IMG/VR virus record: IMGVR_UViG_3300034073_000569
Coordinates: 1 to 64,000 of that record
Source of the DNA: a virus
DNA: 64,000 bases
Reading direction: 5' to 3' (one strand)
Under the pieces are notes generated by a model that was not told where the DNA came from, searched no databases, and saw only the letters and a list, made by a program, of their open reading frames with translations. The first letter of the stretch is position 1. Each line of letters opens with the position of its first letter. Positions 1 to 17,804 of this stretch are shown here, one piece after another. The position numbers and the translations under genes are program-made.

Positions 1-3000
1 AGCATTATATCCATACTTCTGTACATATAGTTCAGATAGTCTTACAAATGCTTTGATAAGATTATCCTTCTCAATATCTGTTAAGTCACGGTTGAATACA
101 CGAATTACTTTATCTCCATAGATCTTCTTACCATTCTCCATGGTGTATTCTTGCATAACCACACGACCTGCTTGAACACCCGCCATTACAACACCACGAC
201 CAGTAGAAACTCTCAGACCAATATTTACATCTGGATTGCTTACACTTCTTAAATCAGTAAAGTCTGGATTGTTAGTAATAACACGACCTTCTACTTCTGC
301 TTTAGATAGTTGACGTTTACCGTCTTCTCCCACTGCAGACGTATACTCAATTCTTTGAATACCAGGCATAGCAGTAACTACATCTAAGTATACGTTACCA
401 CCATCTTTAGTGTTATCCAATAAAGTTTTTTGATAAGCTTTCTCAGCATCAATAGCTTCTTGGATCTCTTCATCTGTAGTTTCAGAATCTACAGTGTATT
501 CTCTTCTTACACGCTCAACTGTCCAGCTATCAATACCAGCTAGTGAACGGTAAATAATATTATCTTTAGTCTGCTCTCCTTCAGGGATAAGCTCATTGTC
601 AACATTTACATATGCATACTTAACACTACCATCTGCTTGAGGTTGTTTCTTAACAACTACAACTTTAATATCATTAGTGTTAAACTCAGTATCACGAATA
701 CCAAATGTATCATTCTCTGCAGTGATTACTTGAAGAGCATAACCTCTTCTAGCTAAGTTAAACTTAGCAGTAAACTTAAAGAATCTATCAGTACCATTCT
801 CTTCATTAGGAACAGTATCTTCTTCGTCTAAGTATTGACGACCAAATGTTTTATTAAAACCTACTTCTTCAAACTTAGGAAGCTTGTTAGTTTTACTAAA
901 TGTTGTAACTGTTTCATTATCTTCTAACTCTTCTGTTTCTTCTTGACCATCTTCATCTACATCTTTCTTAACAGCTTTTTTACGAGTCTTCTTTACAGCT
1001 TGTTTTGTCCAGCCTTCTTTATCTAAAGTAGCAGCTAGCTCTTCTGCATCAATTACAGCAGGGTCACCATCGTTAATCTTAATAGTAACGCTACTATCTT
1101 CTTCATTAACAGCCATAACTTCTAGCTTAGTAACCTCACCGCTATCAGTATCTGTAATGTTATAAATATCACCAGTTACAAACTCTGTAGTATTCTCTAC
1201 ATCATCATCTGTTTTATAAGTAACAGAAAGCTTTGATTGTGTGGGTACAATAGGAGCTGGAGGTTGAGGTTTAGATGCTTGTTCTTTAAGTTGAGCATCT
1301 ACTACAGATAACATCTCATCTGATAATGACTGTAGAAAGTTTTGCTTACCATTAATAGTATCTGCATACTTAGCCCACTCTAAACCAATACTCTTAATAT
1401 GGTTTTGTAACTCACCTTTAAGTTTGATCTTCTTGTTTAAAGTATCAGAGATACCTGGTTGGTTACGATCTTCTTTCTCATATTTATAGAAACCGTTATC
1501 ATCTTTTTCAAGAGCAGCAACAGTGGTCTCATTATCCTTTTGAAGCTTATCAAAGCTTTTCTTTAAACCATCAAGAACTTCTTGAGCTACAGTTTCAAGG
1601 TTTGTTACAAACCCTTTCTTCTGCATAGCTGCAATAACTTCTTCTTGAGATTTAATTCTGTACTGATATTCATTAAGTTGATCTACAATACCATCTGATA
1701 ACGATGAGTTCTCAGTAGATAGTAAATCATTCTTAACTTCAGTTACTTCTGTTAATAGGTCATTTAGAATAGTCTTATAAGCTGCTTGTTCAGCTGCCAT
1801 GTTAACCATCTTATTTTTACGAGCTACATCATCCTGAGTACCATCATACATGATATCAGCATTCATTAACTTGTTCTGTTTAACAATAGAAGCGACTAGT
1901 CCTTTATATCTATTGATCTGAGTATCAATATCTTCACCTAATACAAAGCCTAACTTAGCAATTTGTTCTGGATCAGATTTTCTAACAGCATCTAACTTCT
2001 GATCAATAGTACCTTCTACGCCAGCATTAATATGAGCTACAACAAACTGTGCAAATGCCGTATCTCTTAAAGCATCTTTCTTAAACTTATCATCTACTTT
2101 AGTAGATTCTTCTAATGCAGAGTTAACAGCTCTAAATGATGATGTAACTGCAGCAATTCTTTTTTCATCAAGAACTGGTTGGTTATTCTCATCATAAACT
2201 ACTTTTTCTAATTTTACAGGATTACCTTCAGCGTCAGTACCATCTACTATCTTAGTTTTGTAGATGTTACCAAACTTAAGCCAGTTCTCTTGAGCAGCAT
2301 TGTACATTTCAACTGCAGCTTGAGTTGCAGCTTGATCACGACCAAACTGTCTTACTCCACCAACACCTGCACCAATACCTCCTAAGATACCACCTATACC
2401 AATACTGATAGATGCTTCTGTATCTTTACCCATTAAAGCATCTCCAGTTTGTTTAAAGTATTGTTTAAATACTTCACTGGTGTTAGATAAGTCAGCCATA
2501 CGTCCACTTGTTCCGTATGCTTCATTAATTCTTTGAATAGCTAACTGACCGTTTTCTTCTACGTATCCTTCTGCAAGAACACCTTGACCAATACCACTTA
2601 TAAATGCACCTTTCTTAGAGTTAAGGAAACGCTCAATACCTGACGTAGCAGTTCTTACTCCCATGCTTTCTCCAAACTGAGCAGCACCTGTTACGGCACC
2701 AGCTACACCAGGAGCTTTACCAAATGCTTGACCTAACCATTTAAGTTCAATAGCATTGGTTGCAGCTAATAAAGCTGCGTTCATTAAGAAAGTATTTTGA
2801 GCAGCAGCCCCTGATATACGCTTCTTCTCTTCTTCTGTATAAGGAGTACCGTCTTCTTTATATCTTGTTCTACCAAACTCGTCATAAGATAAAGATTCCA
2901 TCACTTTATCTTTAACAGCTTTAGCTTCATACATGGACTCTGAAGAAGTAGCTAAAGCCCAAGCATTAAACTTATCTAATTTACTAAACGCATTTGCTGC

Positions 3001-3807
3001 ACTCTTTGTATAGTTTACAGCAGCACCAGCTCCTTCAATAGCAGCTTCTGCAGCTCCAACACCTACACGCATACCTGAAGCTAGTCTAGCAAGATTTGCT
3101 CCTAACTGTAACTTACTTAATGCAAGACCAGGAATCCATGCTGATGCAAGAAATGCTAAACCATCTACAGCATCTGTCATCCAGAAATCACCATCTGTAA
3201 ATGCTCTTGACCAAAAACCTTTATCTCTGTCTGCAGCTTCTTGATATGTTGGTAACCAATCATTTTTAGCTTTATCATCAATACTTCTAAATATTTCTGA
3301 AAAGCCATTATCTGAAGCTTTAGTAATAATATCTGCATCCCAGTTATCTGAGTCTAAAAGACCACCGATGTAACCAATACCTTCTCCAGTTTTAGTAAGA
3401 ATACCAAGACCAAGTCTACCTACACCTTTACCAAATGTTTCAAATCCTCCTTCTTGTTGACCATAAAAGTCATCATTATCTATACCATAAATATAACCAT
3501 ACTTTTCACCTCTATATTTTTTAGCAACTTCAGATGGTACAACTTTTGGGTCTACCCAAGATTCTTTAGCAAGAGGAAATGATCTATTAGCCTCTACATT
3601 TATAGCATTAAGAGCTTCATCATAAGACTTATATTTATTTTTTCTAGGTTCTTGATCAGTAAGAACTTGTTGTTCAGGTTGATCAATAGGACTAAGTGCC
3701 TCTACAGGAATGTCAGCTTCTGGCATTTCTTCTGTACTAGGCACGTTTTCAATTATATTCTCAGAAAGATTAGATGAGTAGTCTTGCTCAAAAAGATTTT
3801 CAGCCAT
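1..3807 (-). CDS. Giant virion cargo/ejection protein, N-terminal part (truncated by window edge; not in ORF track)
   Basis: ATG at 3807 (MAENLFEQDYSS...); the frame appears to stay open towards position 1. Gly/Ala-rich hydrophobic stretches (GLAFLASAWIPGLAL, SISIGIGGILGGIGAGVGGV) resemble the membrane-inserting N-termini of giant crAss-like ejection proteins. No RNA polymerase motif recognised in this part. Confidence 0.75.
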   Translation of the reverse strand, partial: MAENLFEQDYSSNLSENIIENVPSTEEMPEADIPVEALSPIDQPEQQVLTDQEPRKNKYKSYDEALNAINVEANRSFPLAKESWVDPKVVPSEVAKKYRGEKYGYIYGIDNDDFYGQQEGGFETFGKGVGRLGLGILTKTGEGIGYIGGLLDSDNWDADIITKASDNGFSEIFRSIDDKAKNDWLPTYQEAADRDKGFWSRAFTDGDFWMTDAVDGLAFLASAWIPGLALSKLQLGANLARLASGMRVGVGAAEAAIEGAGAAVNYTKSAANAFSKLDKFNAWALATSSESMYEAKAVKDKVMESLSYDEFGRTRYKEDGTPYTEEEKKRISGAAAQNTFLMNAALLAATNAIELKWLGQAFGKAPGVAGAVTGAAQFGESMGVRTATSGIERFLNSKKGAFISGIGQGVLAEGYVEENGQLAIQRINEAYGTSGRMADLSNTSEVFKQYFKQTGDALMGKDTEASISIGIGGILGGIGAGVGGVRQFGRDQAATQAAVEMYNAAQENWLKFGNIYKTKIVDGTDAEGNPVKLEKVVYDENNQPVLDEKRIAAVTSSFRAVNSALEESTKVDDKFKKDALRDTAFAQFVVAHINAGVEGTIDQKLDAVRKSDPEQIAKLGFVLGEDIDTQINRYKGLVASIVKQNKLMNADIMYDGTQDDVARKNKMVNMAAEQAAYKTILNDLLTEVTEVKNDLLSTENSSLSDGIVDQLNEYQYRIKSQEEVIAAMQKKGFVTNLETVAQEVLDGLKKSFDKLQKDNETTVAALEKDDNGFYKYEKEDRNQPGISDTLNKKIKLKGELQNHIKSIGLEWAKYADTINGKQNFLQSLSDEMLSVVDAQLKEQASKPQPPAPIVPTQSKLSVTYKTDDDVENTTEFVTGDIYNITDTDSGEVTKLEVMAVNEEDSSVTIKINDGDPAVIDAEELAATLDKEGWTKQAVKKTRKKAVKKDVDEDGQEETEELEDNETVTTFSKTNKLPKFEEVGFNKTFGRQYLDEEDTVPNEENGTDRFFKFTAKFNLARRGYALQVITAENDTFGIRDTEFNTNDIKVVVVKKQPQADGSVKYAYVNVDNELIPEGEQTKDNIIYRSLAGIDSWTVERVRREYTVDSETTDEEIQEAIDAEKAYQKTLLDNTKDGGNVYLDVVTAMPGIQRIEYTSAVGEDGKRQLSKAEVEGRVITNNPDFTDLRSVSNPDVNIGLRVSTGRGVVMAGVQAGRVVMQEYTMENGKKIYGDKVIRVFNRDLTDIEKDNLIKAFVRLSELYVQKYGYNA

Positions 3808-3822: not shown

Positions 3823-6195
3823 TTATTTTGCGTTTGATATAATACTTAATGCATCTGGATTATTAGCTAATACGGAAGCACGAGAATAAGCCTCTAAAGT
3901 TGATCCATAAGGATAATCAATAGGCTTACCATTTACATGTAAAATGTAACTATGGCTTTCAGGAGTATTACCATATAATTTTTTAATAAAGAAAGTAGGC
4001 ATACCTGCTTTACCAGAAATATTAAAATCTACACTTGTTCTATGAGATCCTGGAGTTCCATTATATACCTCAAGACCGGCCAATATATCTCTATGTAAAG
4101 GATTGATATTAGCAAATGGATCTAACTTAGAAGCAATAGTTGGTGCAATTTTACCTACTGTAAACATATCAGTTTTTTCATTATATTTAACATCTTGAGT
4201 ACCTAATCTAGCTGATAGTGATTCAACTACAGCTTTTCTATCTACTGGATTAGTAGCATTAGCATCATCAAGTTTAAACTCAATTTCATATCCATTAGCA
4301 GAAGGAAACCAAGAAATACCAGATACTTTACCTTCTAAACCTGTAAGAGCTTCAAGATAACCTTTTGTAGTTTTAAATCTAGCATCTCCAGTACTTAATG
4401 TAAAGCCTTGTTTAGTTACTGAAGTAACTGTATTACGCTCACTATTAAATTTATTTTTTAATTCAGTATACTTCTTTTCTAACGCCTCACCATTAATACC
4501 TAATTGTTTACCAGCTACAATACCAGAAGTATAGTTTAATACTCTTAAGTCATTGGTAGCACGAGAACCTCCAGTAGGAGAAGATTCATAGTAGTTTTTA
4601 CCAACATCCATTTTAATAGGTTGTCCGCCAGGAGTTAATGAAGGCATTGTTTTAACATATGTCTTCTTAATTGGGTCCCAGTCAACTTTAGTACCACCAG
4701 TAGAAACTACCTTTTGTTTTTGTTGACGATACTGTTGTAAAAGATCATACTCACTACCCATCTCTTGTTGAGCAAATCTTTCAGCATCTTTATTCCAGTT
4801 GTCTTTCCACTGCTTAGCTGCTTCTACTGCTCTAGATGCATTAACAAATGTAAGAGCTTTAGGATGATCAGGATGACTATTTATCCAAGCATCTACATCA
4901 TCTTGCGTTAAACTAGCTCCATTCTTACCAGCATATTTTTGACTTCTATCTGTAGCAACAATATAATCTTTAAGTTCTAAGAACGTAGACTTTTTTGTTT
5001 GCTCTGCAGTTTTTACTTTAGAATCTAAACTAGCATATGTAGTTTTAACTTCTTGTTCTCCTTGTCTAACAGGAAGTAAAGGAAGTTCTTCCTTAGCTGC
5101 TTTTCTAGTCTTCTCATTTTCTGCAGCATCAAAAGCCATACGAGCATACATCATAGCCACTTGGTTAAAACCAATTGTTTGTTCTACATCTGTATGTGAG
5201 AAACCATTAGCTAAACGACCAACAGTTTGACCAATATAAATATTTTCAGCTAACTTCTGAGCATTCTTTTTAAGAAATGAAACATCTCCTTGTTGAATAC
5301 TCTGAATATTACCACGTATTTCTTTAGCTCTTTCTGTATAAAAATCTCTTTCTTGTTGTAAAGCTTGACGCTTAGTTTCATCTTTCTCCCCTTTTAAGGC
5401 AGCATTAACTTGATCAAGTCTACTATCAATTAAAGGTAAATCTTCTCCAGCTTGGTTAATGTATAAACCAGCTACAGAGTTAAGATCAGGATATCTTACA
5501 GCTGCTTCAATACGCATCTGTTGTTTAGCCTTATCAGAAAGAGTAGCACTTAAGTATTTATTAATCTCTTCTTTTGTATAAGAAGCATCTTTGGTAGTAA
5601 CCATGTACATACCATTAACTTTTTCAACCTTAGTAGAACTAGGTTTGAAGTCCTTCATCTTATCTTGAACTTCTTTATTCCAATCATAGTATGGAGTAAA
5701 AGATCTTCTATTAGCATAGTAGTCATTTACAGTAGAGATATCATCTTTAGCAAAAGCTTGTCTCTGCATACGTACATAGTTGATGTTATCATCATTGTAC
5801 TCTTTGCCACCATCTTTTAATCTAAATGATTCTGCAATACCTTCTTGTGAATCCCAGTGTGCAGTTAATGCCATATCACCAAGAACACTACGGTTCTTTA
5901 CAAAAGGTTCAAACACACTAGCAGCTGTTTTAACATTCTGCTGTTGTGATAAATCTAAAGAAGATAAGTTTTTAAGATTCTCTTGAGCTTGTTTAAGAAA
6001 AGTATCTCTAACCTGAACACTATAAGGATTAGTCACGCCTCTGTTTACAAAACCATAGGCACTATTTACTTGAGCAAAACCTTGCTCATATAGTCCCTGT
6101 CTCCTTCTTAGCATTGTATCTAAAAAGGAGAAGTTGGGTGTAAACAGAGCCGGCTCTGGTATTACGTCAGTTACGTTAGGTAAGTAGGTTGCCAT
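3823..6195 (-). CDS. Virion cargo/ejection protein (790 aa)
   Basis: Helical/coiled-coil N-half; lies between the GG-motif proteins and the giant protein, as in crAss-like cargo clusters. Confidence 0.6.
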   Translation of the reverse strand: MATYLPNVTDVIPEPALFTPNFSFLDTMLRRRQGLYEQGFAQVNSAYGFVNRGVTNPYSVQVRDTFLKQAQENLKNLSSLDLSQQQNVKTAASVFEPFVKNRSVLGDMALTAHWDSQEGIAESFRLKDGGKEYNDDNINYVRMQRQAFAKDDISTVNDYYANRRSFTPYYDWNKEVQDKMKDFKPSSTKVEKVNGMYMVTTKDASYTKEEINKYLSATLSDKAKQQMRIEAAVRYPDLNSVAGLYINQAGEDLPLIDSRLDQVNAALKGEKDETKRQALQQERDFYTERAKEIRGNIQSIQQGDVSFLKKNAQKLAENIYIGQTVGRLANGFSHTDVEQTIGFNQVAMMYARMAFDAAENEKTRKAAKEELPLLPVRQGEQEVKTTYASLDSKVKTAEQTKKSTFLELKDYIVATDRSQKYAGKNGASLTQDDVDAWINSHPDHPKALTFVNASRAVEAAKQWKDNWNKDAERFAQQEMGSEYDLLQQYRQQKQKVVSTGGTKVDWDPIKKTYVKTMPSLTPGGQPIKMDVGKNYYESSPTGGSRATNDLRVLNYTSGIVAGKQLGINGEALEKKYTELKNKFNSERNTVTSVTKQGFTLSTGDARFKTTKGYLEALTGLEGKVSGISWFPSANGYEIEFKLDDANATNPVDRKAVVESLSARLGTQDVKYNEKTDMFTVGKIAPTIASKLDPFANINPLHRDILAGLEVYNGTPGSHRTSVDFNISGKAGMPTFFIKKLYGNTPESHSYILHVNGKPIDYPYGSTLEAYSRASVLANNPDALSIISNAK

Positions 6196-6271: not shown

Positions 6272-9235
6272 TTATCTCCAAGGTCCAACTACTCCACCTA
6301 TGTTAAAACCAAAAGCATTTCTATACATACCTGGCATTTGTTGAGCCATTGTAGTTCTAGTAGTGTTAGGAATACCGTCATTATCTGTATCAGAATAAGT
6401 AGTTCTTCCACCTCTTAGTTGTGCAAGAGCTTCTTTTTCTGCATTAGCTTCAGTCATTCCTAAACGAAGATACTGATTTTTTAATGAAGGAAACTGAGCC
6501 ATTGGTCCAATGTTAGAAGATGCTGTTGCAAAACCTGGAGCTCCAAGCTTGCTAGCATCATATCCTTCTTTAAAGAAAGATAGTCCAGTTCTAGGATCAA
6601 CGTTATAGATAGGATTAACTTTATTAACCATATCTAAATACATTCTATTAGCAAATGCATTATTAGCTGCTTGTGTAATACCAGTTAAGTATTTTCTACG
6701 AGCATTATCTAAGTTTTGTTTAGTTGTTACAAAACCTTCCCAACGCTTATCTCTTGCTGCAGCATTGTATGCGTCATTAGCTGTCTTACGTTGTAACTCT
6801 TGAGCCATAAACTGATTAGCTCTATCTACATTACGAGAGTCTGTTTGAGCAATGTCTTGAGCTACTCCTTCACCAGTTTGTCCTGCTAAGAAAGAAAGAT
6901 TAGAAGCCATAGCTGTACCAGGCTGATATTGACCTAGTGTGTTAGCTGCTATGTTATACGTTTGCTGTCTTTGTTGAGCTTTAGATAACCAATCTTCTAA
7001 AGCTAAATCACCTTGTCTGTATGGTAATTCTGCCACAGAAGGTAAATAAGCTTGAGGAGGATTTAATCCAGCTGTTAACAATGCTAGTTTATCAGGTGTT
7101 AAGAATCCAGCTTTGCTAGGAGTAGTTTTACCAGGAGTAATCTGATTAGGTGTAATACTACCAGCACACTGCATAGCTGCAGCTTGTCTTGATCCTACAG
7201 CTCCATCAGCAGCCATAGCTTCAGCATCCATGTAAGATGACTCAATAATCATAGGATTACCAGCATCATCAATACCTGTACACTTATAACCAATAGGAGA
7301 TTTACCAGGAACCATCTTAGGCTTAGTGCGATAGCTATCATAGTGCTCAGCACCAATCATCATATCATCACCTAACTGAGTACGGTATTGATCACCTACA
7401 AACTTTTGAGCAAATTTTGGATAGAACTGTTTTTCAAAAAAGTTCTTATTAGCATAAAGACTCTTCTTGTTCTTTAATTGATCATCACTTAAGTTAGATA
7501 CATCTATACCAAGTTCTTTAAAGTATGCTTTACGAATATCTAATTCACTCATATTCTTTACAGCCTCTTCTCCTAATGTATCTTCTACTAATCTACGCTC
7601 ATACATATCAGGACTATATCCACCAAAGAATCCAGCTTTCTTACCTTTACTTCCTTTAAAAGTTAAACCAGGTGTTGAGCTTTGAATAACATTATACATT
7701 TTGCCACCCTTTGGATCTTTTCTGCTAAAGCCAAACTTACCTGATAAACGAGCAAATTCCTTAGCATCAGCTGCTGACATAGAGTTAATATTATATGAAC
7801 CTTTCACAAGCTTAGTATCATACTTCTCTAATAGTTGTTTATACTTAGCAAACTCTGGATCATTAACATCAGCTAATGATTTAGGAGATAATGTTTGATC
7901 AATGACTTCAGAAGCATCAGGAACACGTGTAGGTTTAGAAGCAGCTTGACGTCTATCTAAATCTTGTAACAATGCTTGTTGTTGAGCAAGTTGAGCAGCT
8001 TGAGGAAAAATCTGATAAGGATTTAGTGGATCTACTACTTGACCAGCTAATTGATATTCAGGAATATAACCACCATATGCAGCTATTGGCATTTGATCTT
8101 TTGCTCCTTCTACAACAGCTGGAATTCCTTGAGGAAAACCTTTCATCTCTTCTTGTACAAGAGCTAAAGCTGATAACTTCTTGCGATAGTTAGTAAGCAT
8201 CAACTGAGCTGTAGCTTTTGATATTTCATCTGCTTCAGGATCTTCTACAATAGCTTTGTATTTATTAATATCATACTTCTTAGCAATCTCTGCAGGAGTA
8301 TATCCACCAGCTTTAGGAGACTTGCCAAACATGGTTAGAATAGATGGATCTTTAATTTTCATTTTCTTAGTATCTGAGAAAATAAAACTACCTTCAGGAA
8401 CATTAAGAGGCACACCGCCTTGAGAGTGACGCTTACCGTTAATATTCATATGTTCTAAACCACCATCTCCATCTATATCACCATATACGGTTTCCCCGCC
8501 TTCTGCTTCTATATTAGCAGCATAACGTGGTACTTCAGTAATACTATTACTTACAGAGTCTGCTCTTGATTCAGGCATGTCAGTCTGTACTCTACGTTGA
8601 CCAAGATCTAATCCATATCCAGATTGACCACCGTATTTAAACTCTAAGTTTTCTGGTTTACCAGTTATTCTAATCTTTATCATATTACTTGTATTAGCAA
8701 AGTTCTCTTCTCCACCCATTTGAAACATACCTTCATTAGGTTTACGTGTTACATTCTCACGGAATCTACCAGTGTTAATTTCAGCGTTACCTCTAAACAT
8801 AGGATTAACTACTTGATTATCAAACTGGTTTTGTCTAAACGCTCTTTCATAGTCTTTAAGCTTTTTGTTCTGACCAAAGTAATCTACAGCAGCTCCTGTC
8901 ATTAACAAAGCATCAGACCAGTTAGATATGTCATTAGCAGTGTTTACAGTGTCTTCACTAAATAAAGGTTTTCTTTTATTAGGATTTACAATATCAGGAC
9001 TATCAGTAACTGGTGTTCCTTTACTATTATCTACTGCAAACTGTGTAGTAGGCTCACCAAAATCACCAACTGTAGTTTTAGATCCATCAGGATTGATAGT
9101 AGTAACTTTAGGTAATGGTGGCATAGCAGTCTGACCAGGCATTGTCCATGCATAGTTTGGTTGAGACTGATTTAATATTTGACTATTTAAATACTGAGCT
9201 TTAGGTAGTCCTTTTTTTACAATACGTATTTTCAT
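6272..9235 (-). CDS. Virion cargo protein (987 aa) with EAEGGE...HSQGG...FIFSD segment and xxGG motifs
   Basis: Segment EAEGGETV...GKRHSQGGVPL...FIFSD recalled from crAss-like cargo proteins; FQMGG, FKYGG, AAYGG, FNIGG motifs; synteny. Confidence 0.6.
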   Translation of the reverse strand: MKIRIVKKGLPKAQYLNSQILNQSQPNYAWTMPGQTAMPPLPKVTTINPDGSKTTVGDFGEPTTQFAVDNSKGTPVTDSPDIVNPNKRKPLFSEDTVNTANDISNWSDALLMTGAAVDYFGQNKKLKDYERAFRQNQFDNQVVNPMFRGNAEINTGRFRENVTRKPNEGMFQMGGEENFANTSNMIKIRITGKPENLEFKYGGQSGYGLDLGQRRVQTDMPESRADSVSNSITEVPRYAANIEAEGGETVYGDIDGDGGLEHMNINGKRHSQGGVPLNVPEGSFIFSDTKKMKIKDPSILTMFGKSPKAGGYTPAEIAKKYDINKYKAIVEDPEADEISKATAQLMLTNYRKKLSALALVQEEMKGFPQGIPAVVEGAKDQMPIAAYGGYIPEYQLAGQVVDPLNPYQIFPQAAQLAQQQALLQDLDRRQAASKPTRVPDASEVIDQTLSPKSLADVNDPEFAKYKQLLEKYDTKLVKGSYNINSMSAADAKEFARLSGKFGFSRKDPKGGKMYNVIQSSTPGLTFKGSKGKKAGFFGGYSPDMYERRLVEDTLGEEAVKNMSELDIRKAYFKELGIDVSNLSDDQLKNKKSLYANKNFFEKQFYPKFAQKFVGDQYRTQLGDDMMIGAEHYDSYRTKPKMVPGKSPIGYKCTGIDDAGNPMIIESSYMDAEAMAADGAVGSRQAAAMQCAGSITPNQITPGKTTPSKAGFLTPDKLALLTAGLNPPQAYLPSVAELPYRQGDLALEDWLSKAQQRQQTYNIAANTLGQYQPGTAMASNLSFLAGQTGEGVAQDIAQTDSRNVDRANQFMAQELQRKTANDAYNAAARDKRWEGFVTTKQNLDNARRKYLTGITQAANNAFANRMYLDMVNKVNPIYNVDPRTGLSFFKEGYDASKLGAPGFATASSNIGPMAQFPSLKNQYLRLGMTEANAEKEALAQLRGGRTTYSDTDNDGIPNTTRTTMAQQMPGMYRNAFGFNIGGVVGPWR

Positions 9236-9237
9236 AA

Positions 9238-10455
9238 TTACATTATTTCAAACTGATAACCTTGTTGACGAAGAACTTCAAGTTGTTCTGGAGATACATC
9301 TAATATTTCACCTTCTACTGGACCACCCATTTGCTTAGCAAAGTTCTTAGCAAAGTTAGCTTTTTTTCTCATAGCAGGGCTATACTTTCCTTCTGGTGCG
9401 TTAAGTATTGCTGAAGCAGCTTCTTGTACTCCCATGCCCATACGAGTAGCTTGTGCTTTAAATGTTCCTTTCTTAGATGGGTCTAAATGAATACCACCTT
9501 GTTCCATCATCTCTACTGCATAGTCTGCTGGGAATGACATATCATATTCTGGAATAAAACCACCTGCTTGATAGAATGCATTACCACTAAAAGTAGATCC
9601 ACCTTCTTTCCATGTCTTTCTAGCAAACGCTCTAAAGAAAGGATTATTCTCTAAATTCTTTTTATGACGAGCATAGAAAGCTGCTTTACGTTCTGGATCT
9701 TTAGGATGCTGACCTAACTTAGAATCACCAAAGTATTTAACAGTTCCATCAGGACCAGTTACTTTATGTGTTTTACCTTTACGATCATTACTTCTTGTAA
9801 CAACGTATCCGCCATTAGCCATCATTTCTTCTTCATCCTCTTGCTCATACTGCTCCCCCATTTCTTCTCCACCTTCTCCTTGAGCTTCAGGATTATACAT
9901 CATATAATCAGAAATGCTATTTACACTATCATCAATTACAGCAAGCTTAGAAGCAATCCATGGATCTAAGTTTTGTTCAGGAGAAACAAACTGACGTAGC
10001 TTACTCATCTTATCTGCAACAGCAGTCATTTGACCTAAAGCCATACCACCATTAGGTTCTCCACCTTCTTCCATATAATCAAATCCACCATACATCATTT
10101 CTGGAATATATCCTCCATAGGCATAACCATAATCACCCATCTTATCAAGATTACCAGCTGCAGCAAAACGTGCACGAGCAATCTCTGGTGGCATCTTTTC
10201 TCCACCTTCAGCCATATTATCCATAATCTTTTGTTGTACAGCAGGAGGTAATGCCTTAAAGCCTGGGTTATCTGGTGTACCACCATCACCCATTACTTCC
10301 ATACCGTATTCAGCTTTACGCCAAGTACCACCTTTAGACTTATACCATTTAGCAGCCCAGCCGTTAGCATAAGCACTAGGGTATACATCAAATTTAGATT
10401 TGGCCATAGACTTAGCTCTAGACCACAAGGCAGGGTTATTAGGTTTGTTTGCCAT
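9238..10455 (-). CDS. Modular (polyprotein-like) putative virion protein with about 10 xxGG motifs
   Basis: 405 aa made of short basic/acidic modules separated by MGDGG, MAEGG, YAYGG, MMYGG, MEEGG, MANGG, WKEGG, YQAGG, MEQGG, KQMGG. Confidence 0.65.
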   Translation of the reverse strand: MANKPNNPALWSRAKSMAKSKFDVYPSAYANGWAAKWYKSKGGTWRKAEYGMEVMGDGGTPDNPGFKALPPAVQQKIMDNMAEGGEKMPPEIARARFAAAGNLDKMGDYGYAYGGYIPEMMYGGFDYMEEGGEPNGGMALGQMTAVADKMSKLRQFVSPEQNLDPWIASKLAVIDDSVNSISDYMMYNPEAQGEGGEEMGEQYEQEDEEEMMANGGYVVTRSNDRKGKTHKVTGPDGTVKYFGDSKLGQHPKDPERKAAFYARHKKNLENNPFFRAFARKTWKEGGSTFSGNAFYQAGGFIPEYDMSFPADYAVEMMEQGGIHLDPSKKGTFKAQATRMGMGVQEAASAILNAPEGKYSPAMRKKANFAKNFAKQMGGPVEGEILDVSPEQLEVLRQQGYQFEIM

Positions 10456-10463
10456 TTTAAATA

Positions 10464-12833
10464 CTATTTATTTCTTTTATGATTATAATCTATACGTTGA
10501 CTGCTAGTTTTACTAGCTTTAAATTTAGCTTTTTCTGCTGGACTCATTTCAGATGATGTCTTAGGTGTCTGAGAGTTTACTCTTTTAGAAGGGCGACATG
10601 CTGGATAACCTTTACGACTTTCTCCTTCTTGTCTACCACATGCTTTACCTGTCTTTACATCAACCCACTTTTCTGCAAACCATCTATCTAATCCACCATG
10701 TTGACCACCTGATGCATTTTTTGGTAATACACCAGTTCCTTGTTTGTAATTCTGACTAAACCAAGTTGCTGCAGAATCAGTAGGAAACTTTATATAGCTT
10801 TTAGTAGAGTCAGCATAATCAAATGCATCTTTACCTAAATATTTTAAACTACCATCAGGCATCTGTACTACTGTTGGATATACACGTCCATCTCCACTTT
10901 CCATAAAGTGAGTAGATCTACCACGTTGTCCAGGTATCTGCATAGAAGGTGTATTCTTTGGATATAATCTCTTTACCCAATTAAGATTCTTATTAGCGTT
11001 TAACACAGAATCAACATACGCTGTCCCACCACCTTGCATCATAGGATATTCATCTACATAAGATGCACCACCAAAGTTATATTCTTGTCCAGGCTGCATC
11101 ATCTGCTCTTGACCATTAGAACCTACACCATATACAGGATAGTTAACACCTTGCATAGTAATATTAGATCCAGGTATACGAGTTACTTTGCCAGGGTGAG
11201 CCCATTGACCACGAGGATCTAAAATAGGTCCACCATATTGAGCCATGTCTGCATCTGATTTAGCATCAGTGTTTTGTGCAATAGTGTTGTTTAGAAGAAT
11301 GATTTTACCAGGACTATACTTCTGCTGCATTCTTTTAAATACAGGGTCATTCTGAATCTGCTTATTCTTTAAAGCTTTTTCATAAATAGTTCTATTAATG
11401 TTATCACCAAACTTCTTAGTAAGACCATTCTTGTATAACAAATGTCTAATACCTGTTAAGTCAGCATAAGACTCATTAGCAAAAACCCCATAACCTCTAT
11501 TATCATAATGCTCGTCTTGATTAGGTATAGTATAAGCAAAGTTCATAAACTTATCAACTTCTGCCTCATTTAAAGAAGTACCAAATTTAGTATTATTACC
11601 AGCCGCTAAGTTATCCCAATACTTACTATTATCATAGTCTGAATCTAAAAGTGTACTTAAAGTTTCACCTTTAAACAAAGAGTGACCAAGCTCATGAGCA
11701 ACAACACTTTCTAAATTAGAACTATTTAATACAGTTTTTCTTTTTTTAGGATCATAATAATCCTTAAACTTTCCAATATTCTTAATCTGAGCAGGTTGAT
11801 TATAAAGATCCATTAATCTATATGATCTTTTAGCAGAAGCTGTAGATTTTTGAAATACTTTAGGGTTTTCATAATAGCTAAGATTATTACCTATATATCT
11901 TTCTGGATGCATAGCCTGTCTTTGTGCATACAAAGGTGACTGAATATACCCAGCCATTTCAGACTTTATCTCATCAACTGTACCTTGATTAATAGGTTTA
12001 AAATCATATGATCCTTCCCAGAATGGATTAGTTACTGTTTGTCCACCTTTTTGTTTAAAGAAACCACCATAAGCTTTTTTATCTTTTGGATAGTAAACTC
12101 TACCATAGATTTTATACGGAACACCTTGCATTTGATTCTGAAGCTTTTCAGGAAAATCATACTGATCAGAGTAAGATAAATAATCACCTTGTTTATCAGA
12201 ACCTCTACTAACTACAAACTTACCTAAAGCTCTTGCACGACTAACCATAGGTCTACCAACTAATGGATTTTCATCATTAGGTCCAAATTTAACCATCTGC
12301 TTATCTCCTTCCCAAAATGCATTTGGGTTACCAGGAAAATAACTATTTACAAAATATTCATCAGTAGGTATTATTTGACCAGGCTTTACTTTATCTTTAA
12401 AACTATCAAATATATCTTGCTCTAACTGTTGATCTGCACTATAGTAAAAACCATTAGGATCAGCGTTTATTGTAGGTTTATACTTAGAAGGTCTAAAGTA
12501 TTCTGGCTTAGATTGTAAACCTAAATACATTTTAAAAGCTTCTTCACTACGAGCATCATCATACTCATCTCTATCATTATTAAAGACATATCTAATATAA
12601 TTCTTTAGATCAGTATAGTCAGTTGGTCGTACAGTCCTATATACTTTTTGTCTATTGGCTAATGTTTCTTGAGGAAATACTCTAGGATCTATAACAGGTT
12701 TTTTAGTTTGAACCTGTCCAGCTTTTTGAAAAGTAGGTAATGCAGTAAAACCCTTCTGAGCTTTAGCTAGATGAGGAAGAAACTTATCTGATACATTACC
12801 TGCACCAATCATATGTTGTAATAGCTTATTCAT
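10464..12833 (-). CDS. Modular putative virion protein with a zincin-like HExxH domain and xxGG motifs
   Basis: VVAHELGHSL plus downstream NESYAD; KAYGG, KQKGG, AQYGG, MQGGG, NASGG linkers; basic Cys-containing C-terminal module. Confidence 0.6.
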   Translation of the reverse strand: MNKLLQHMIGAGNVSDKFLPHLAKAQKGFTALPTFQKAGQVQTKKPVIDPRVFPQETLANRQKVYRTVRPTDYTDLKNYIRYVFNNDRDEYDDARSEEAFKMYLGLQSKPEYFRPSKYKPTINADPNGFYYSADQQLEQDIFDSFKDKVKPGQIIPTDEYFVNSYFPGNPNAFWEGDKQMVKFGPNDENPLVGRPMVSRARALGKFVVSRGSDKQGDYLSYSDQYDFPEKLQNQMQGVPYKIYGRVYYPKDKKAYGGFFKQKGGQTVTNPFWEGSYDFKPINQGTVDEIKSEMAGYIQSPLYAQRQAMHPERYIGNNLSYYENPKVFQKSTASAKRSYRLMDLYNQPAQIKNIGKFKDYYDPKKRKTVLNSSNLESVVAHELGHSLFKGETLSTLLDSDYDNSKYWDNLAAGNNTKFGTSLNEAEVDKFMNFAYTIPNQDEHYDNRGYGVFANESYADLTGIRHLLYKNGLTKKFGDNINRTIYEKALKNKQIQNDPVFKRMQQKYSPGKIILLNNTIAQNTDAKSDADMAQYGGPILDPRGQWAHPGKVTRIPGSNITMQGVNYPVYGVGSNGQEQMMQPGQEYNFGGASYVDEYPMMQGGGTAYVDSVLNANKNLNWVKRLYPKNTPSMQIPGQRGRSTHFMESGDGRVYPTVVQMPDGSLKYLGKDAFDYADSTKSYIKFPTDSAATWFSQNYKQGTGVLPKNASGGQHGGLDRWFAEKWVDVKTGKACGRQEGESRKGYPACRPSKRVNSQTPKTSSEMSPAEKAKFKASKTSSQRIDYNHKRNK

Positions 12834-15800
12834 TACCTATGTGACTGTATTAACTTTTGATTAGAAATCTTAAATAACATTTTTAGATCACCACTCTTTG
12901 ATTTTCTCAACCATACTTTATTTACATGATGTCTAAACTTCTTACGCTCTAAAGCTGCTTTACCATAGTCAACATATTGAGGATTAATCTCATACTGATA
13001 ACCATTAGCTTTTGTAACAAACATAGACTGGTTAGTAAGAGTGTTAAACTCACCACGATCCTTTGTTATATCCCAAAACTGATTGAATCTATATTTATTT
13101 TCTTCTTTAGAGAATAATATCTTTATAGAGTTAGGTTGAATCTGAGGATAAGATAAAGCTGCAACAGGGTTGTTTTTAGGTTTAACGCTTAACTCAAGTA
13201 AACCAGACACTTGTTCAGAGTTAGAAATAATAGCTTGATCAAAGTTTTGATCTAATACATGGAACTTATCTGCACAGTTGTTATGTGTCTTATACACTTC
13301 AAGTAAATATTCAATATTTCTTACTGAATTAACCTGCTGACCTGTAGCTGAGATAAACTCCACTTCAAATGGATAATCTTTACCATAGAAGTTTGCATAA
13401 GAATCACAACGTACATTATGCTTCCATATAGAGTTAGTATCTACAGTCATGAAATGAGCCTTTCCTGGAATTACAAACGTTGGATTCCAGTCATGGAATG
13501 ATAACCATGTCTGACTCTTTGGATCATAACTAATAGTCCATGATGCATTTTCAAATGCTAACGGATTATCAAAGTCATAATATGTTTTAAGACCAGCTAT
13601 TGTTCTATAAAACTTACCATCAGCATCATGAGCCATATCATTAAGCAAAGGCTTATAGTCCTTCTTAGTGATATAGATTATCTCATTGGTATTATCATAA
13701 GTCATTTGTACCCCTACACCTTTTACAGGATTATCGTATAATGGATAATTAGGATACTTAGCAAGTAATTCAGAAGGTAGGTATTTAGCAAACCACCATT
13801 TCATACCATCTCTAGATATTTCTTTAAGCTGTCCAGCATATTGGAATATCTTTCCTTGGTTTTGACTTACCCAGAATACACCATGGGTACATCCTAATGT
13901 AGCATACTTACTTTGACATGATCCATATTCAAATGACTCATCAGCATTTACTAATGCTTGAAGCTGTTGTGGACCACTAAATAAAGCTCCATCTCCAATA
14001 GTAATCTTAGCACCAGTACCATCTAGCTTAAGTTCTTCTACACCCATAAACTGCATAGGGCTCTGATAAGCCATCATGAATAAAGCACCTGTTTTATTAA
14101 CAGACTTAATTGATGTAACACGACTACCAAATGTCTTATAGTTGTTAGCTAGATAAACTCTCCAGTTATCTTTCTTACTTTCATCTTGTTGTGGAAGAGA
14201 ATAAATAACTCTATTAACATAATAACTATAACAAGTTTCTGCTTTCTTAGGATCAAAATCTCTATCAAGCATATTACCCCAAGTAATCTGTGAGTTAAAT
14301 AACTTAGATACGCTTAATGAGTAATCATATTTATAGTAGTTAGGTTCTTTAATTATATCTGATCTAAATAAACTACTTAAATCAGTTAATCCATTACTAT
14401 CATAATGGCGTTTCTCTGGACGATCTTCCCAATCTCTATATGCTATATTTACTTCAGATTCTACAAAGAAGTCACGCACGCCAGAGTTAAATAAATAAAA
14501 GTATCCTCTGCTTATATGAAATGTACTAGATTTTCTATGATCTAATACTCTAAATCCACTAGCTAGTTTAAATAAACCTCCAGATAAGTTAGTATTATTA
14601 ATCCAGAATCTAGGATAAGGCATACTAAAGTACATAGAGTAATCTAACTCTGCACCATTAGGTTCTCCGTATAACCAAGTATTAAAGAACAACATACTGT
14701 TCTTTTCTGTAAATCTGTTGATATAAATATCACCACCAAAATATACATTAGATGTAATCTTGCCAGTATTAGATGTAGTTACATCTTCTACACAGAAAGA
14801 AATAGGTATTTGCTTTAAGCTATCTAGTTGACCATACTGTGATGGTAAAGATATCTTCAATGCACCATAATGTCCAGATACAGTACTTTGGTAAGTAGAA
14901 TATAATGAACCATCTCTTTCACTAATCAAGAATCTACTATTATCTACAGTAGTAGGATTGTTTACTTCAGCGTTTGTCTTAAGTATTACAAACTTACCAC
15001 GATTAAAGTTATTAACCATGTAGTTTTGTGAGCTAGCTGTAAATGACTGAATATCAGAGTTTACATAACTAGACTCAACAATTCTTCTTCTTCTATTTCC
15101 TTCTAATGTTGTTCTAGACTTATTATAATAACCATGAGCTACATATTGTGCAGCATATTGCTTATAAGGAATAATAGCTAAAATCAACTTCATGAATTGC
15201 TCAGAAGTAATATCTATTTGTATAGTAGCCATAGCTCCTAATACAACAGCATTAGCTACTGTAATAGCAGTGTTAGCAGCTTGTCTCTTTGATGCACCAA
15301 TACCGCCAAGACCAGGAACACCAAAGTTATTAATAAAACCATTACTTGTACCAAAGAAACTACCAGCAATCATTTCAGCTCTATGTGGAGCAAGTAGGCT
15401 TTGTGTTAATGGAATATCATCTGTTCCTTGAAATTCTACTTTAGCATCTGCTCCAGCTAATGCTCCTACAAGTTTTGCAATTGTAGCAATAGCTGATAAA
15501 ACATTTGTTAAAATATCAGTAAAGTTTGTTGGAAGTTTAAACTTAGGATGTTTATATGGAGTTTCAAATCTACCATTAGCTTCACCATAAATCTCTTGAT
15601 ACAACTTTACTTCACTACTACTTAGGTAAGGACTGCTAAATGTTACATCGGGACCATGAAAAGATAATACATCTTTCTTATAGCCAGACAACTTACTTGA
15701 TTTAGGATCAGGACTACCATTATCACCTAATTGTTCTTGAGAAGTCATGTAACCATCTTCTCTTAAGTCATTAAATGGATAGTTTTGATATAAGCCTGTA

Positions 15801-17452
15801 ACATTAGTTTGATTAGGAACAGAGTATTCTCTCATGTTATTAATCAATCCTTTACTTACAACCGTCTTATGTCCTTCTCTTGATCCACGTAATACTTCAT
15901 ATCCTACAATTGATGTAATAACATTTCCATTAACATCAACAGGTTTAGTAATATTATGAAACTCTACACCTAGAATAATAATATTATTACCATCATTAGT
16001 AAAGTGATTAACTACATCACCACCGGTAATTGTAACATCAGGAAACTTATGATGTCTAATAGGCTGACCACAAAGGTTACCCCATATATCCACTCTGTTA
16101 GAAGGATACAATTCTGTAGATTCCCAATATCCCATCTTACCTTTAGCTACAACACGTCCTCCGTCTGCTAAAACAGAAGAAGTAGTTGTCTCTACAGTAG
16201 CTGTATTACTTACTTGCCATTTTTCTAACTGAACACCATCTTGAGTTTCATATGCATCTGTTCCGTTAGCTAATACCGTATCTGTTGAAATAGGTGCTCT
16301 ACCAGGAATATGATATGACTCAGAGCGTTCTCCTGTATTATACACCCATCTAATAAAGAATGCATATTGTTCATCTCTCATGTATCCAGTGTTGTTACCA
16401 CCTTTTACATAATAGTTTGCAGGATATTCAACAGCAACCCATCTAGCTTGAATACTATTGGCTTGTGGTTGATAGTTAAACTTAGTCTTACTGTATGTAC
16501 CTACACGTAACATGTAATTGTTTACAGTGTAAATAGCATCAGATTTTTCAATAGGTTCAGTTCTAACAACAATCTGAGAAATAGGTATAGTCTCAAAATC
16601 ATTACTTAGAGTATCTATATAAATAGTTCCTTGATTAGTAGAATAGTAACCAACTCTACGTGCAATAGTTTGACCATTGATTTGAGCTAACATAACTAAC
16701 TCAAACTCTTCAAAGTCTTTATCTATAGTAGTAATCTTTACTTCTAAAGAAGAACTGAGATTTTGATGGCTAAATAATGATTGTACTTCTGATAAACCAA
16801 GGTAATCAGATACCTTAACTTTATTAATAGTATAAGCAATAGCTATTTGGTATGATCCATTTGGAAGAGTACCACTAGCTTTACCTTTCTCTAGAATAAT
16901 ACAAGGATGAGTGATAAGGGATGTTAAACGAATCTCTTCACAGTTAAGATCTGTAGAATAAATTTTAGTCACACATCCATTACTAATAGATTCTGTATAT
17001 CTAAAAGGAGGATTTTCTAAGTCCATAAATCTGTCCGGATTTAATCCATCAGACCAATATACAGGACGCTCGCAGTCATAACGTCTACGACTAGTTCCTG
17101 TAATAAGATTAGAACGCTTAAAGTTTAAACAAGGAGAATTAACCTTCTTTGTATAAGAACATTGGCTCTCATCAAAGATACCAATCTCAGAGTTTACATC
17201 ATCAGTAGTAAAGATAGCCCACATATCATCTGTTAGATGTATGCAGCCAATCATAGGGTAAGGAAGAGTTACACAATGTAAATTAGATGGTTCATTACCT
17301 ATAACACCTATCTGACCATCATGTGAGTTATTTACAGCATTACGGGCATGTGTCCACAATCCCTCACCAACGAAGGTTTCATTATAATCCTTAACCATAC
17401 CCTTATTAAAAAGGTTAGTGGTAGATGTAGGGTTCTGTGTATTTTCAGCCAT
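12833..17452 (-). CDS. Tail muzzle / tail stabilization protein (crAss-like, P22 gp10-related beta-propeller)
   Basis: 1539 aa beta-rich protein; N-terminal FNKGMVKD...ARNA, C-terminal SWTISYDP...WLSFHDWNP...IWKHN; position after the ring proteins. Confidence 0.8.
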   Translation of the reverse strand: MAENTQNPTSTTNLFNKGMVKDYNETFVGEGLWTHARNAVNNSHDGQIGVIGNEPSNLHCVTLPYPMIGCIHLTDDMWAIFTTDDVNSEIGIFDESQCSYTKKVNSPCLNFKRSNLITGTSRRRYDCERPVYWSDGLNPDRFMDLENPPFRYTESISNGCVTKIYSTDLNCEEIRLTSLITHPCIILEKGKASGTLPNGSYQIAIAYTINKVKVSDYLGLSEVQSLFSHQNLSSSLEVKITTIDKDFEEFELVMLAQINGQTIARRVGYYSTNQGTIYIDTLSNDFETIPISQIVVRTEPIEKSDAIYTVNNYMLRVGTYSKTKFNYQPQANSIQARWVAVEYPANYYVKGGNNTGYMRDEQYAFFIRWVYNTGERSESYHIPGRAPISTDTVLANGTDAYETQDGVQLEKWQVSNTATVETTTSSVLADGGRVVAKGKMGYWESTELYPSNRVDIWGNLCGQPIRHHKFPDVTITGGDVVNHFTNDGNNIIILGVEFHNITKPVDVNGNVITSIVGYEVLRGSREGHKTVVSKGLINNMREYSVPNQTNVTGLYQNYPFNDLREDGYMTSQEQLGDNGSPDPKSSKLSGYKKDVLSFHGPDVTFSSPYLSSSEVKLYQEIYGEANGRFETPYKHPKFKLPTNFTDILTNVLSAIATIAKLVGALAGADAKVEFQGTDDIPLTQSLLAPHRAEMIAGSFFGTSNGFINNFGVPGLGGIGASKRQAANTAITVANAVVLGAMATIQIDITSEQFMKLILAIIPYKQYAAQYVAHGYYNKSRTTLEGNRRRRIVESSYVNSDIQSFTASSQNYMVNNFNRGKFVILKTNAEVNNPTTVDNSRFLISERDGSLYSTYQSTVSGHYGALKISLPSQYGQLDSLKQIPISFCVEDVTTSNTGKITSNVYFGGDIYINRFTEKNSMLFFNTWLYGEPNGAELDYSMYFSMPYPRFWINNTNLSGGLFKLASGFRVLDHRKSSTFHISRGYFYLFNSGVRDFFVESEVNIAYRDWEDRPEKRHYDSNGLTDLSSLFRSDIIKEPNYYKYDYSLSVSKLFNSQITWGNMLDRDFDPKKAETCYSYYVNRVIYSLPQQDESKKDNWRVYLANNYKTFGSRVTSIKSVNKTGALFMMAYQSPMQFMGVEELKLDGTGAKITIGDGALFSGPQQLQALVNADESFEYGSCQSKYATLGCTHGVFWVSQNQGKIFQYAGQLKEISRDGMKWWFAKYLPSELLAKYPNYPLYDNPVKGVGVQMTYDNTNEIIYITKKDYKPLLNDMAHDADGKFYRTIAGLKTYYDFDNPLAFENASWTISYDPKSQTWLSFHDWNPTFVIPGKAHFMTVDTNSIWKHNVRCDSYANFYGKDYPFEVEFISATGQQVNSVRNIEYLLEVYKTHNNCADKFHVLDQNFDQAIISNSEQVSGLLELSVKPKNNPVAALSYPQIQPNSIKILFSKEENKYRFNQFWDITKDRGEFNTLTNQSMFVTKANGYQYEINPQYVDYGKAALERKKFRHHVNKVWLRKSKSGDLKMLFKISNQKLIQSHR

Positions 17453-17804
17453 GTTTAATTACTAACTTCTTCTTGTCCAAAAATTTATATATTTCTCCAG
17501 TAAGATGACCAACCAACCAAGCTTGTGCCTCTTCATCTGTTATATCTCTATCTTCTGTTATTCTAACTACAGCATGATAAAGTTCATGGGCAATGGTATT
17601 ATGAGTTAAGAACTTATCACCTAGTAAAAGATAGTAGTTATCTATATCCGGCATTACTAGTGCTCCTTCAGCCTCTCCTCCAAAATCATCATTAATCTTA
17701 TACTTCTTATAAAGCTTTTCTGCTTCTACAGATACACTTTCCACCACTACTACTTTGAGTTTACAACTATACGTTGGTAATTTTATGGTGGTACTTACTT
17801 TCAT
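17445..17804 (-). CDS. Small zincin-like metallopeptidase domain protein
   Basis: TIAHELYHAV followed by DEEAQAWLVG (HExxH plus third-ligand Glu). Confidence 0.6.
   Translation of the reverse strand: MKVSTTIKLPTYSCKLKVVVVESVSVEAEKLYKKYKINDDFGGEAEGALVMPDIDNYYLLLGDKFLTHNTIAHELYHAVVRITEDRDITDEEAQAWLVGHLTGEIYKFLDKKKLVIKHG

Follow-up and report, generated by a model that had tools for sequence, protein, structure and literature searches.

A recurring Φ-x-x-Gly-Gly junction punctuates the modular cargo-like virion proteins of a crAss-like phage

The virus record IMGVR_UViG_3300034073_000569 of IMG/VR comprises 127,624 bp and is rated 98% complete. Here, we analyzed its positions 1 to 64,000 (the window), which correspond to half of the record. 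Three adjacent genes of this window, A (10464-12833; 789 amino acids, aa), B (9238-10455; 405 aa) and C (6272-9235; 987 aa), encode proteins that are best explained as internal cargo or ejection proteins of a crAss-like podophage and as an expanded version, split into three genes, of what occupies the gp45 position in phage crAss001. We found that these proteins consist of short units, which are shuffled among related phages, and that a compact motif (Φ-x-x-G-G, where Φ is a hydrophobic residue and GG stands for Gly-Gly) is enriched in them and lies in disordered surroundings at the borders of the units. The fuller consensus of this junction is roughly [L/M]-P-x-[M/Y/F]-[Q/A/K]-x-G-G. Judging from sequence, predicted models and the analogy to gp45, we tentatively favor, with slightly less than even confidence, the reading that the junction is a stop-and-hinge between units; the chain would then stay uncleaved and each junction would act as a hinge.

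An earlier note, which was made from the sequence alone, had singled out these genes as virion cargo genes carrying one repeated motif. We could confirm the three adjacent genes, which are all located on the minus strand and directly follow a crAss-type muzzle gene, and all 22 motif strings listed at that time were recovered in A-C, including the variants FQKAG, YQLAG and AEYGM. For the window taken alone, the case for the motif is modest. When the GG counts were compared with shuffles of the same proteins, a significant excess was observed only for B (13 observed, 5.6 expected, p=0.002), which is the densest in the motif; the corresponding values were 8 and 5.5 for A (p=0.17) and 11 and 7.4 for C (p=0.11). 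The other 44 open reading frames (ORFs) of the window did not show any excess (148 observed vs. 142 expected). F, Y, W or M was present at position -3, which is the Φ of the motif, in 15 of the 32 GG sites of A-C vs. 15 of the 148 sites of the other 44 window ORFs, and for the strict motif [MYFWH][QAKE]xGG we counted 10 copies in A-C (2,181 aa in total) vs. 4 copies in 36,444 aa from other parts of the genome.

With the muzzle protein as anchor, viral contigs yielded 77 related loci. The cargo set was formed by the three ORFs that come first downstream of the muzzle gene (177 non-redundant proteins from 76 loci, 166,285 aa), and the upstream ORFs together with the muzzle protein itself served as controls (658 ORFs, 280,987 aa). 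The GG density amounted to 11.3 per 1000 aa in the cargo set and to 5.1 in the controls. At the GG sites of the cargo set M (5.8-fold), H, Y and F were enriched at -3, Q, A and K at -2, and Y, H and E at -1, and no such pattern was seen in the controls. The motif [MYF][QAKE]xGG was counted 570 times in the cargo set (44±6 after shuffling) and 39 times in the controls of the same loci (28±5 after shuffling), which indicates that it is not avoided there. An exhaustive HMMER search with B returned 3,329 representative clusters at E<=0.001, and in the best 145 of these, which were at most 50% identical to each other, we found 930 copies (48±8 after shuffling) and a median GG-to-GG distance of 26 aa. 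Thus, the motif is conserved among homologues, exceeding the shuffles 13- to 19-fold in both independent sets, and it is neither a product of chance nor peculiar to this phage.

BLAST comparison of A, B and C with syntenic proteins resolved them into independently moving blocks, the limits of which coincide with GG at residues 256, 534, 601 and 709/713 of A, at residues 58, 84, 195, 215, 285, 298, 320 and 377 of B and at residues 174 and 388 of C. In an all-vs-all comparison of the cargo set, 39.7% of the 8,707 internal ends of high-scoring segment pairs (HSPs) fell within ±3 aa of a GG end (9.8% at random), with a sharp peak exactly at the last Gly, and 27.9% of the 8,485 HSP starts fell within ±3 aa of GG (9.9% at random); these HSPs are not independent of each other, since the relatives have a common history. 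In the AlphaFold model of A, 7 of the 8 GG are found at the edges of domains in linkers of low confidence, and the remaining one is part of a beta-turn. In the model of B, all 13 are located in coil, and 7 of them directly follow a predicted helix. The proposal that the motifs lie at segment boundaries therefore holds for A, for B and for the HSP ends of the family as a whole, and it fails in part for C, where 5 of the 11 GG are found inside one conserved block (aa 186-395); two of these belong to the internal motifs E243-A-E-G-G-E248 and H270-S-x-G-G, which are nearly invariant.

Both the module map and the HSP-end statistics agree with the beads-on-a-string architecture with motif-marked borders that the earlier note had proposed, and comparison across related phages showed that the units vary in gene, order and position. 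In three relatives (L059, L060, L063), for instance, the first cargo protein carries residues 208-288 of B behind the beta module a4 (aa 535-603 in A), and residues 1-300 of B were found at 1594-1888 of a 2135-aa protein. Units of B occur in proteins of 125-2293 aa, and 1,947 short proteins (30-221 aa) share units with it; some of these carry DUF6321, DUF5754 or DUF5872, and they are punctuated by x-x-G-G as well. In phage C72C1 (L087, 5995-6401), DUF5872 is split into two adjacent ORFs of 57 and 77 aa, and the break is located just after a YKRRGG-TW junction. These data are best explained by modules drawn from a large common pool, which involves DUF5872 halves, DUF6321- and DUF5754-type pieces, a gp45-like module, a beta module and a zinc peptidase.

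The assignment of A-C to the virion is supported by their neighbors. The preceding gene (12833..17452, minus strand) encodes a muzzle-like virion protein of 1539 aa, which belongs to the PHROG virion structural proteins. It is homologous to gp042 of Cellulophaga phage phi4:1, which is a virion protein by tandem mass spectrometry (MS/MS) according to its record, and weakly matches the crAss001 muzzle protein gp44 in BLAST (E 4.5e-4). The syntenic phi4:1 proteins gp039-gp041 are annotated as virion proteins on the basis of MS/MS. Two tail ring proteins are encoded at 17808-18680 (ring 1, Pfam CrAss_Ring_1, E 9.6e-14) and 18677-19351 (ring 2, CrAss_Ring_2, E 1.7e-23) of the minus strand, and a capsid protein (Crass_capsid) is also present. 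A-C occupy the slot of crAss001 cargo protein 1 (gp45), and the gene order corresponds to that of gp43-gp46. Taken together with a module of B that matches gp45, these neighbors argue for virion cargo genes, as had been suggested.

Like A-C, gp45 is encoded after the muzzle gene (Bayfield et al., 2023, PMC10172136). It carries the same punctuation, with 20 GG, among them FDTGG, SAYGG, FAEGGG, KAFGG, NAFGG and FAYGG. The content of A-C, however, is spread over three genes (2,181 aa) and includes a zinc peptidase and DUF5872, and a sequence relation to gp45 was observed for a single module (B 316-378); pairwise BLAST gave E 0.014 for B and no match for A or C. In the structural account of crAss001, stored gp45 forms an extended chain, of which short structured pieces dock on the portal and the tail barrel, and the authors describe the chain as bridging capsid and tail (PMC10172136). 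With the segment limits given there, the segment bound to the tail (214-245) begins 4 residues behind SAYGG, and the portal-bound domain 425-552, which is described as one compact domain resolved by cryogenic electron microscopy, starts inside NAFGG and ends before FAYGG at 562. Thus, the resolved pieces begin at or just after Φ-x-x-G-G, and this fits junction-bounded units in one chain. The published gp45 peptides (79-101, 181-190, 275-300, 307-320) span no GG site (PMC10172136), and the text of the 2018 crAss001 paper lists virion gel bands of 15 to >300 kDa without identities. The main text of PMC10172136 does not contain the strings 'cleav' or 'protease', and its passages on gp45 do not mention the motif; the words 'motif' and 'glycine' were not searched for there.

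Among the possible roles of the junction we favor the uncleaved hinge, followed by partial processing by a zincin and then by a docking motif. As a hinge, one hydrophobic turn would close the preceding unit and Gly-Gly would then allow free rotation. The chain would be stored extended in the capsid and the tail channel, single units would attach to surfaces of the portal, ring or muzzle in the way resolved for gp45, and the protein would exit the narrow tail unit by unit. Because every unit would end alike, recombinants joined at junctions would stay functional, which would explain the rampant shuffling.

Several observations weigh against this reading. Family-wide, helix propensity is raised only at positions -4 to -1, and Pro or Gly are enriched at -5 and -7, which characterizes a compact specific motif rather than the ends of long helices. 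M, Y or F at -3, as found in 51-67% of the sites, is not needed by a plain hinge. Conservation of the junction is one-sided, with 0.57, 0.37 and 0.40 bits at -3, -2 and -1 vs. 0.14-0.16 bits after GG. Standalone homologues of 72-89 aa keep a leader ending in the motif, although there is no unit in front to hinge. The low AlphaFold confidence of B (mean predicted local distance difference test, pLDDT, of 44.5) makes its helices tentative. Finally, two zincins are encoded in or beside the block. A plain helix C-cap, which we considered as a simpler description of the motif, is half supported, since 7 of the 13 sites of B follow a helix, yet the rise in propensity spans just four residues.

Both of these predicted zinc metallopeptidases (HExxH) had been overlooked in the earlier note. 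The first one is a domain of A (aa 265-530; 11244..12041, minus strand) with HELGH at 380-384 and Glu454 in NESYAD. The AlphaFold model of A (mean pLDDT 51.7) involves a confident domain at 275-518 (pLDDT 65-95) and a moderate one at 545-598. When residues 256-526 were used for structural search (VIA-align), all top 11 matches were zinc peptidases (Z 5.1-8.7). The best ones were M13 enzymes (PepO, Z 8.7, root-mean-square deviation 4.1 Å over 181 aligned residues; Zmp1, 8.4; neprilysin, 8.3; ECE-1, 8.0), and these were followed by lethal factor, PPEP and thermolysin. HExxH and [ND]E[SQ]Y were retained in 13 of the 13 alignment rows with the domain, including A itself. Going by the predicted model and the motif, the domain is a gluzincin fold with HExxH...E; because common folds can give Z values of this size, we claim fold and motif only and no particular family (M13, M4, M34). 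Pfam search with A returned no peptidase family at E<=0.1, including MPTase-PolyVal, and the isolated domain matched Zn_peptidase_2 only (E 0.091). Foldseek with the whole model of A gave nothing at E<=0.001. A hidden Markov model (HMM) of the domain detected it among the relatives in L003 and L005 only, with an additional weak match (E 0.001) in L071 and L072.

The second one is a 119-aa ORF (17445-17804, minus strand), which is located directly upstream of the muzzle gene, overlaps its start and carries HExxH with a Glu 15 residues further on. It looks like a minimal zinc peptidase (mini-zincin): H73, E74, H77, E92 and W96 are invariant in 27 aligned sequences, and its HMM detected it in 47 of 71 related loci with at least 1,500 aa of cargo. 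The ORF matches phrog_1365 of unknown function (E 1.3e-10). No match was obtained in Pfam (E<=10) or in the phage record collection (tblastn), and a profile search against the PDB gave a chance-level match only. In the ESM Atlas it led to unnamed viral clusters and, with a score of 0.89, to Peptidase_M78. The earlier statement that no SUMO/Ulp-like protease is visible agrees with our Pfam scans (E<=0.001-0.05 for clan CE cysteine proteases): among the 115 ORFs of at least 80 aa in the 127.6-kb genome no C5, C63, C48 or C39 peptidase was found, although a very divergent enzyme could escape such a scan. No other protease family, including prohead proteases, was detected in the Pfam scans of these ORFs or in PHROG scans of the window.

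As a first alternative to the hinge, A-C might be polyproteins that are cut after or at some junctions by the mini-zincin, by the gluzincin of A or by both, and cutting in the capsid or after ejection would free small proteins or peptides. We consider this scenario unlikely. The conservation on the N-terminal side of GG resembles that of protease sites, and Y, I or M follows GG at 1.7-3 times the background frequency, which would suit the S1' pocket of a zincin. The mini-zincin combines an invariant HExxH...E with a fixed place in those 47 of 71 loci, and the gluzincin of A has its HExxH...E intact. In the standalone homologues the leader ends with [MY]K-x-GG just ahead of the conserved domain. 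In crassvirus cr10_1, such a gene adjoins a gene for an annotated peptidase of 432 aa (HEISH) between the portal and capsid genes, and this peptidase has a weak similarity to zincin modules in cargo proteins (E 0.002). For injected polyvalent proteins, processing by zincins has been inferred (Iyer et al., 2017, PMC5512222), and the 1805-aa protein encoded nearby barely exceeds the cut-off of ART-PolyVal.

Other data argue against processing. The gp45 domain 425-552 is modelled as continuous across GG 427/428, 434/435 and 447/448 (PMC10172136). Motif density hardly differs between loci with and without a mini-zincin within ±10 kb (4.2 vs. 3.8 per 1000 aa), and the top values (8.5) were observed without it. 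Cargo ORFs with HExxH are found in only 30 of 74 loci, HExxH occurs in 16 of the 145 distant representatives, and neither zincin family was found in the examined stretches of phi4:1, Lbo-JY46, cr10_1 and crAss001. Sites that are 5-9 aa apart would give tiny, useless fragments, as in the cluster YAYGG-YIPEMMYGG-FDYMEEGG-EPNGG, where cutting would leave pieces of 5-9 aa. The motif is not avoided in other virion proteins (39 vs. 28). The hydrophobic residue would be located at P5, whereas the substrate consensus of adenain, PLpro and C39 has it at P4. Complex prediction for the mini-zincin and B aa 95-230, which was carried out without controls, scored 0.00 against a mark of 0.32 and favors neither side. 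A stronger version of this idea would make Φ-x-x-G-G the recognition site of small virion zinc peptidases such as the 119-aa protein, with the polyproteins of crAss-like and many marine phages being cut at a subset of junctions into dozens of products. We regard this version, which is drawn from sequence patterns, as quite unlikely. If it were true, the gp45 pieces in the crAss001 tail and on the portal could be separate products and not one threaded chain.

Alternatively, the junction might bind a virion part (scaffold, capsid interior, portal or ring), so that many copies would load these proteins into the procapsid and retain them there by avidity. Unlike a generic linker, the motif is compact and specific; it has Pro at position -5 and is hydrophobic at positions -6, -3, +2 and +3. 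It forms tandem clusters as multivalent motifs do, and is retained even in single-unit standalone proteins. In addition, the modules tend toward head and packaging gene clusters in the unrelated phages cr10_1, S-BM3 and C72C1. However, other presumed cargo proteins of 790, 1805 and 3031 aa carry 0, 0 and 2 motifs, and therefore the motif is no general loading tag. Moreover, the segments of the crAss001 protein that are bound to portal and tail lie between motifs and not at motifs (PMC10172136). On balance, such a docking role appears very doubtful. That the pattern is a compositional accident, imposed by the reader on GG arising by chance in glycine-rich, low-complexity sequence, has a practically negligible probability, since the insignificant bare GG counts of A and C alone are outweighed by the excess in both independent sets, by preferences at -3, -2 and -1 that are missing from the GG sites of control proteins, and by the coincidence of GG with the ends of similarity blocks.

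On the DNA level, the Gly codons of the junctions are biased: 26 of 31 GG sites of A-C read GGT-GG[T/A], and the first Gly codon is GGT in 27 of the 31 sites compared with 64% GGT among all Gly codons of A-C. A recombination signal formed by these codons was rejected, because the common stretch of 5-6 nucleotides is too short. At aa 309-311 of C the DNA reads GCTGGTGG, which we take to be the E. coli Chi octamer; this is probably meaningless.

A limited, non-exhaustive look-up of the literature revealed no description of this junction in phages. The closest parallels besides gp45 are the polyvalent proteins, which combine unrelated domains in one chain, show extensive mosaicism and contain zincin domains, as A-C do; the polyvalent proteins are injected, and their zincin peptidase domains are proposed to process them (Iyer et al., 2017, PMC5512222). 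Unlike those proteins, many units of A-C comprise 10-80 aa, which is far below the size of an enzyme domain, and the ART-PolyVal match of this genome (31.3 vs. 31.2 bits) lies in the neighboring 1805-aa protein and not in A-C. The main text of PMC5512222 contains neither 'glycine' nor 'linker'; as far as that text goes, the junction motif is therefore not described there. The ejection proteins of T7 (gp14-16) and P22 (gp7, 16, 20), as cited in PMC10172136, are packaged in the head and expelled before the DNA. We found no sequence relation of A-C to the internal proteins of T7, P22 or T4 and detected no prohead protease in this genome. In T4, internal proteins carry an N-terminal capsid-targeting sequence, which is removed by the prohead protease, and we know of no repeated junction motif in the internal proteins of these three phages. 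A likeness to this type of protein is that relatives of A-C carry cell-wall enzymes: the homologue P0012 has LysM and YkuD, and the first cargo proteins of phi4:1 (gp041, L001) and Lbo-JY46 (386, L002) contain lysozyme- or transglycosylase-like sequence as judged by eye. Adenovirus protease, pS273R of African swine fever virus and C39 peptidases recognize a hydrophobic residue shortly before Gly-Gly, and conservation is found mainly upstream of GG. In A-C the hydrophobic residue is located one position further away (Φ-x-x-G-G, not Φ-x-G-G), and by Pfam none of the peptidases of these systems (C5, C63, C48, C39) is encoded here. The kind of protein is known, and its common junction grammar and parts pool appear to be undescribed.

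For practical purposes, the junction allows the internal cargo proteins of crAss-like and marine phages, which are large, evolve fast and mostly lack annotation, to be split by a simple rule into units that can be searched, folded and compared singly. Already, crAss001 gp45 and small proteins of the DUF5872, DUF6321 and DUF5754 types are tied together by this rule as one parts pool, and the pattern extends over at least 3,329 protein clusters. It also poses a sharp question for crAss001 and phi4:1, namely whether the chains are intact when stored and ejected or cut at the junctions. Should the junction be a hinge or a loading signal, it would be a natural choice of linker to bring foreign proteins into phage heads.

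Inspection of A by BLAST coverage and AlphaFold gave a module map of aa 1-30, about 100-255, the gluzincin (275-518), the beta module a4 (535-603), about 610-700 and DUF5872 (684-776). The small module a4 (11025..11231, minus strand; pLDDT 54-78) is bracketed by AQYGG and MQGGG and is the most widely shared one; across 76 loci, as many as 49 BLAST HSPs (E<=1e-4) overlap here. In relatives it often forms residues 24-100 of the first cargo protein. Many of them, including phi4:1 (gp040, which has 14 GG) and Lbo-JY46 (386), carry it close to the N-terminal end of their first or second cargo protein. The DUF5872 region (10506..10784, minus strand) matches PF19197 with 50.1 bits (cut-off 27.5) and is 72% identical to a protein of Prochlorococcus phage P-SCSP2. 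Several junctions (aa 253-259 of A and sites in B and C) read Y-G-G-F/Y. Neprilysin cleaves the Gly-Phe bond of enkephalin (YGGF...), and together with the M13-like domain of A we take this as a coincidence and no more. phi4:1 gp041 carries two HExxH motifs (HEFTH and HELNH).

Protein B is a chain of short helical or otherwise small modules, and its AlphaFold model consists of short predicted helices in a row, with two small folded parts. Its N-terminus (aa 5-50; 10306..10443, minus strand) corresponds to positions 1-45 of PF19197 (18.8 bits, below the cut-off) and to phrog_27331. This DUF5872 half ends with YKSKGG, and the same half forms the separate 57-aa ORF of phage C72C1. Module b5 (aa 316-378; 9322..9510, minus strand) is related to gp45 374-436 (hhalign probability 91%, E 1e-6; hmmsearch 34.7 bits) and to free-standing phage proteins of 72-89 aa, in which a leader of 18-35 aa ends in the motif directly before the conserved domain. 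Short homologues are P0096, P0120 and a standalone 75-aa gene of cr10_1. The product of the latter has a YKNGG leader. Together with the gene for the HEISH protein it occupies 7667-9198 of L084 (uncultured phage cr10_1), where the portal gene lies on one side of the pair and scaffold-like and capsid genes on the other, and the 75-aa gene itself is located between the HEISH gene and a scaffold-like gene; the weak resemblance of the HEISH protein to zincin modules concerns cargo proteins of L029, L071 and L072 (E 0.002-0.007).

Protein C apparently arose by fusion of two units, an N-terminal one (aa 1-184) and one that begins at Met185. Both units start with M-(I)-K-I-R-I; C itself starts with MKIRIVKKGLPKAQ, and a second start-like string, MIKIRITGKP, follows at Met185. 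Lbo-JY46 protein 384 and separate proteins of many relatives begin with this string, and in at least 15 relatives the match begins at aa 185-187 of C and at residues 1-5 of their protein. The second copy at Met185 and its place at the start of separate proteins suggest that the string is a conserved N-terminal signature and that C resulted from a gene fusion. The block c2 (aa 186-395; 8051..8680, minus strand; about 42 overlapping HSPs) contains the internal strings EAEGGE and H-S-x-G-G. In an alignment of 43 sequences E243, E245, E248, H270 and G274 are invariant and G273 is conserved to 95%, a pattern of the kind expected of a metal or active site, for which c2 is a candidate. This block matches gp45 462-509 weakly (hhalign, E 0.013), and its ESM Atlas features lead to crAss_CARG1 clusters (score 0.91). 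The crAss_CARG1 profile PF25725 (cut-off 27 bits) found no match in the whole genome at E<=10 and in none of 18 c2-block homologues at E<=1. The block may correspond to the domain by which gp45 binds the portal. For C as a whole, no match was found in 50,697 phage records (tblastn), among PDB sequences (phmmer) or with gp45 (pairwise BLAST).

Nearly all genes of the window are located on the minus strand. In the order of transcription they begin with the large terminase, the portal, an acidic scaffold-like protein, the capsid protein and a run of tail-fibre genes, followed by CrAss_Ring_2, CrAss_Ring_1, the 119-aa ORF, the 1539-aa virion protein, A, B, C, a 790-aa protein and a giant ORF that leaves the window. 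The 790-aa protein (3823..6195, minus strand) takes the position of crAss001 gp46 (cargo protein 2) according to gene order; it carries 4 GG (3.2 expected) and no copy of the strict motif. The giant ORF (1269 aa, 1-3807, minus strand) leaves the window at its start and may continue in a 3031-aa ORF (113107-127622 of the genome); if the genome were circularly permuted, the joined frames would make about 4300 aa. The next gene encodes the 1805-aa protein (ART-PolyVal, 31.3 bits, cut-off 31.2), and both genes occupy the place of the crAss001 virion RNA polymerase proteins. A gene resembling DNA-repair exonucleases (20008-21324, minus strand; phrog_704, E 5e-49) is embedded among the tail and structural genes, with the ring genes on one side and genes for fn3-bearing proteins on the other.

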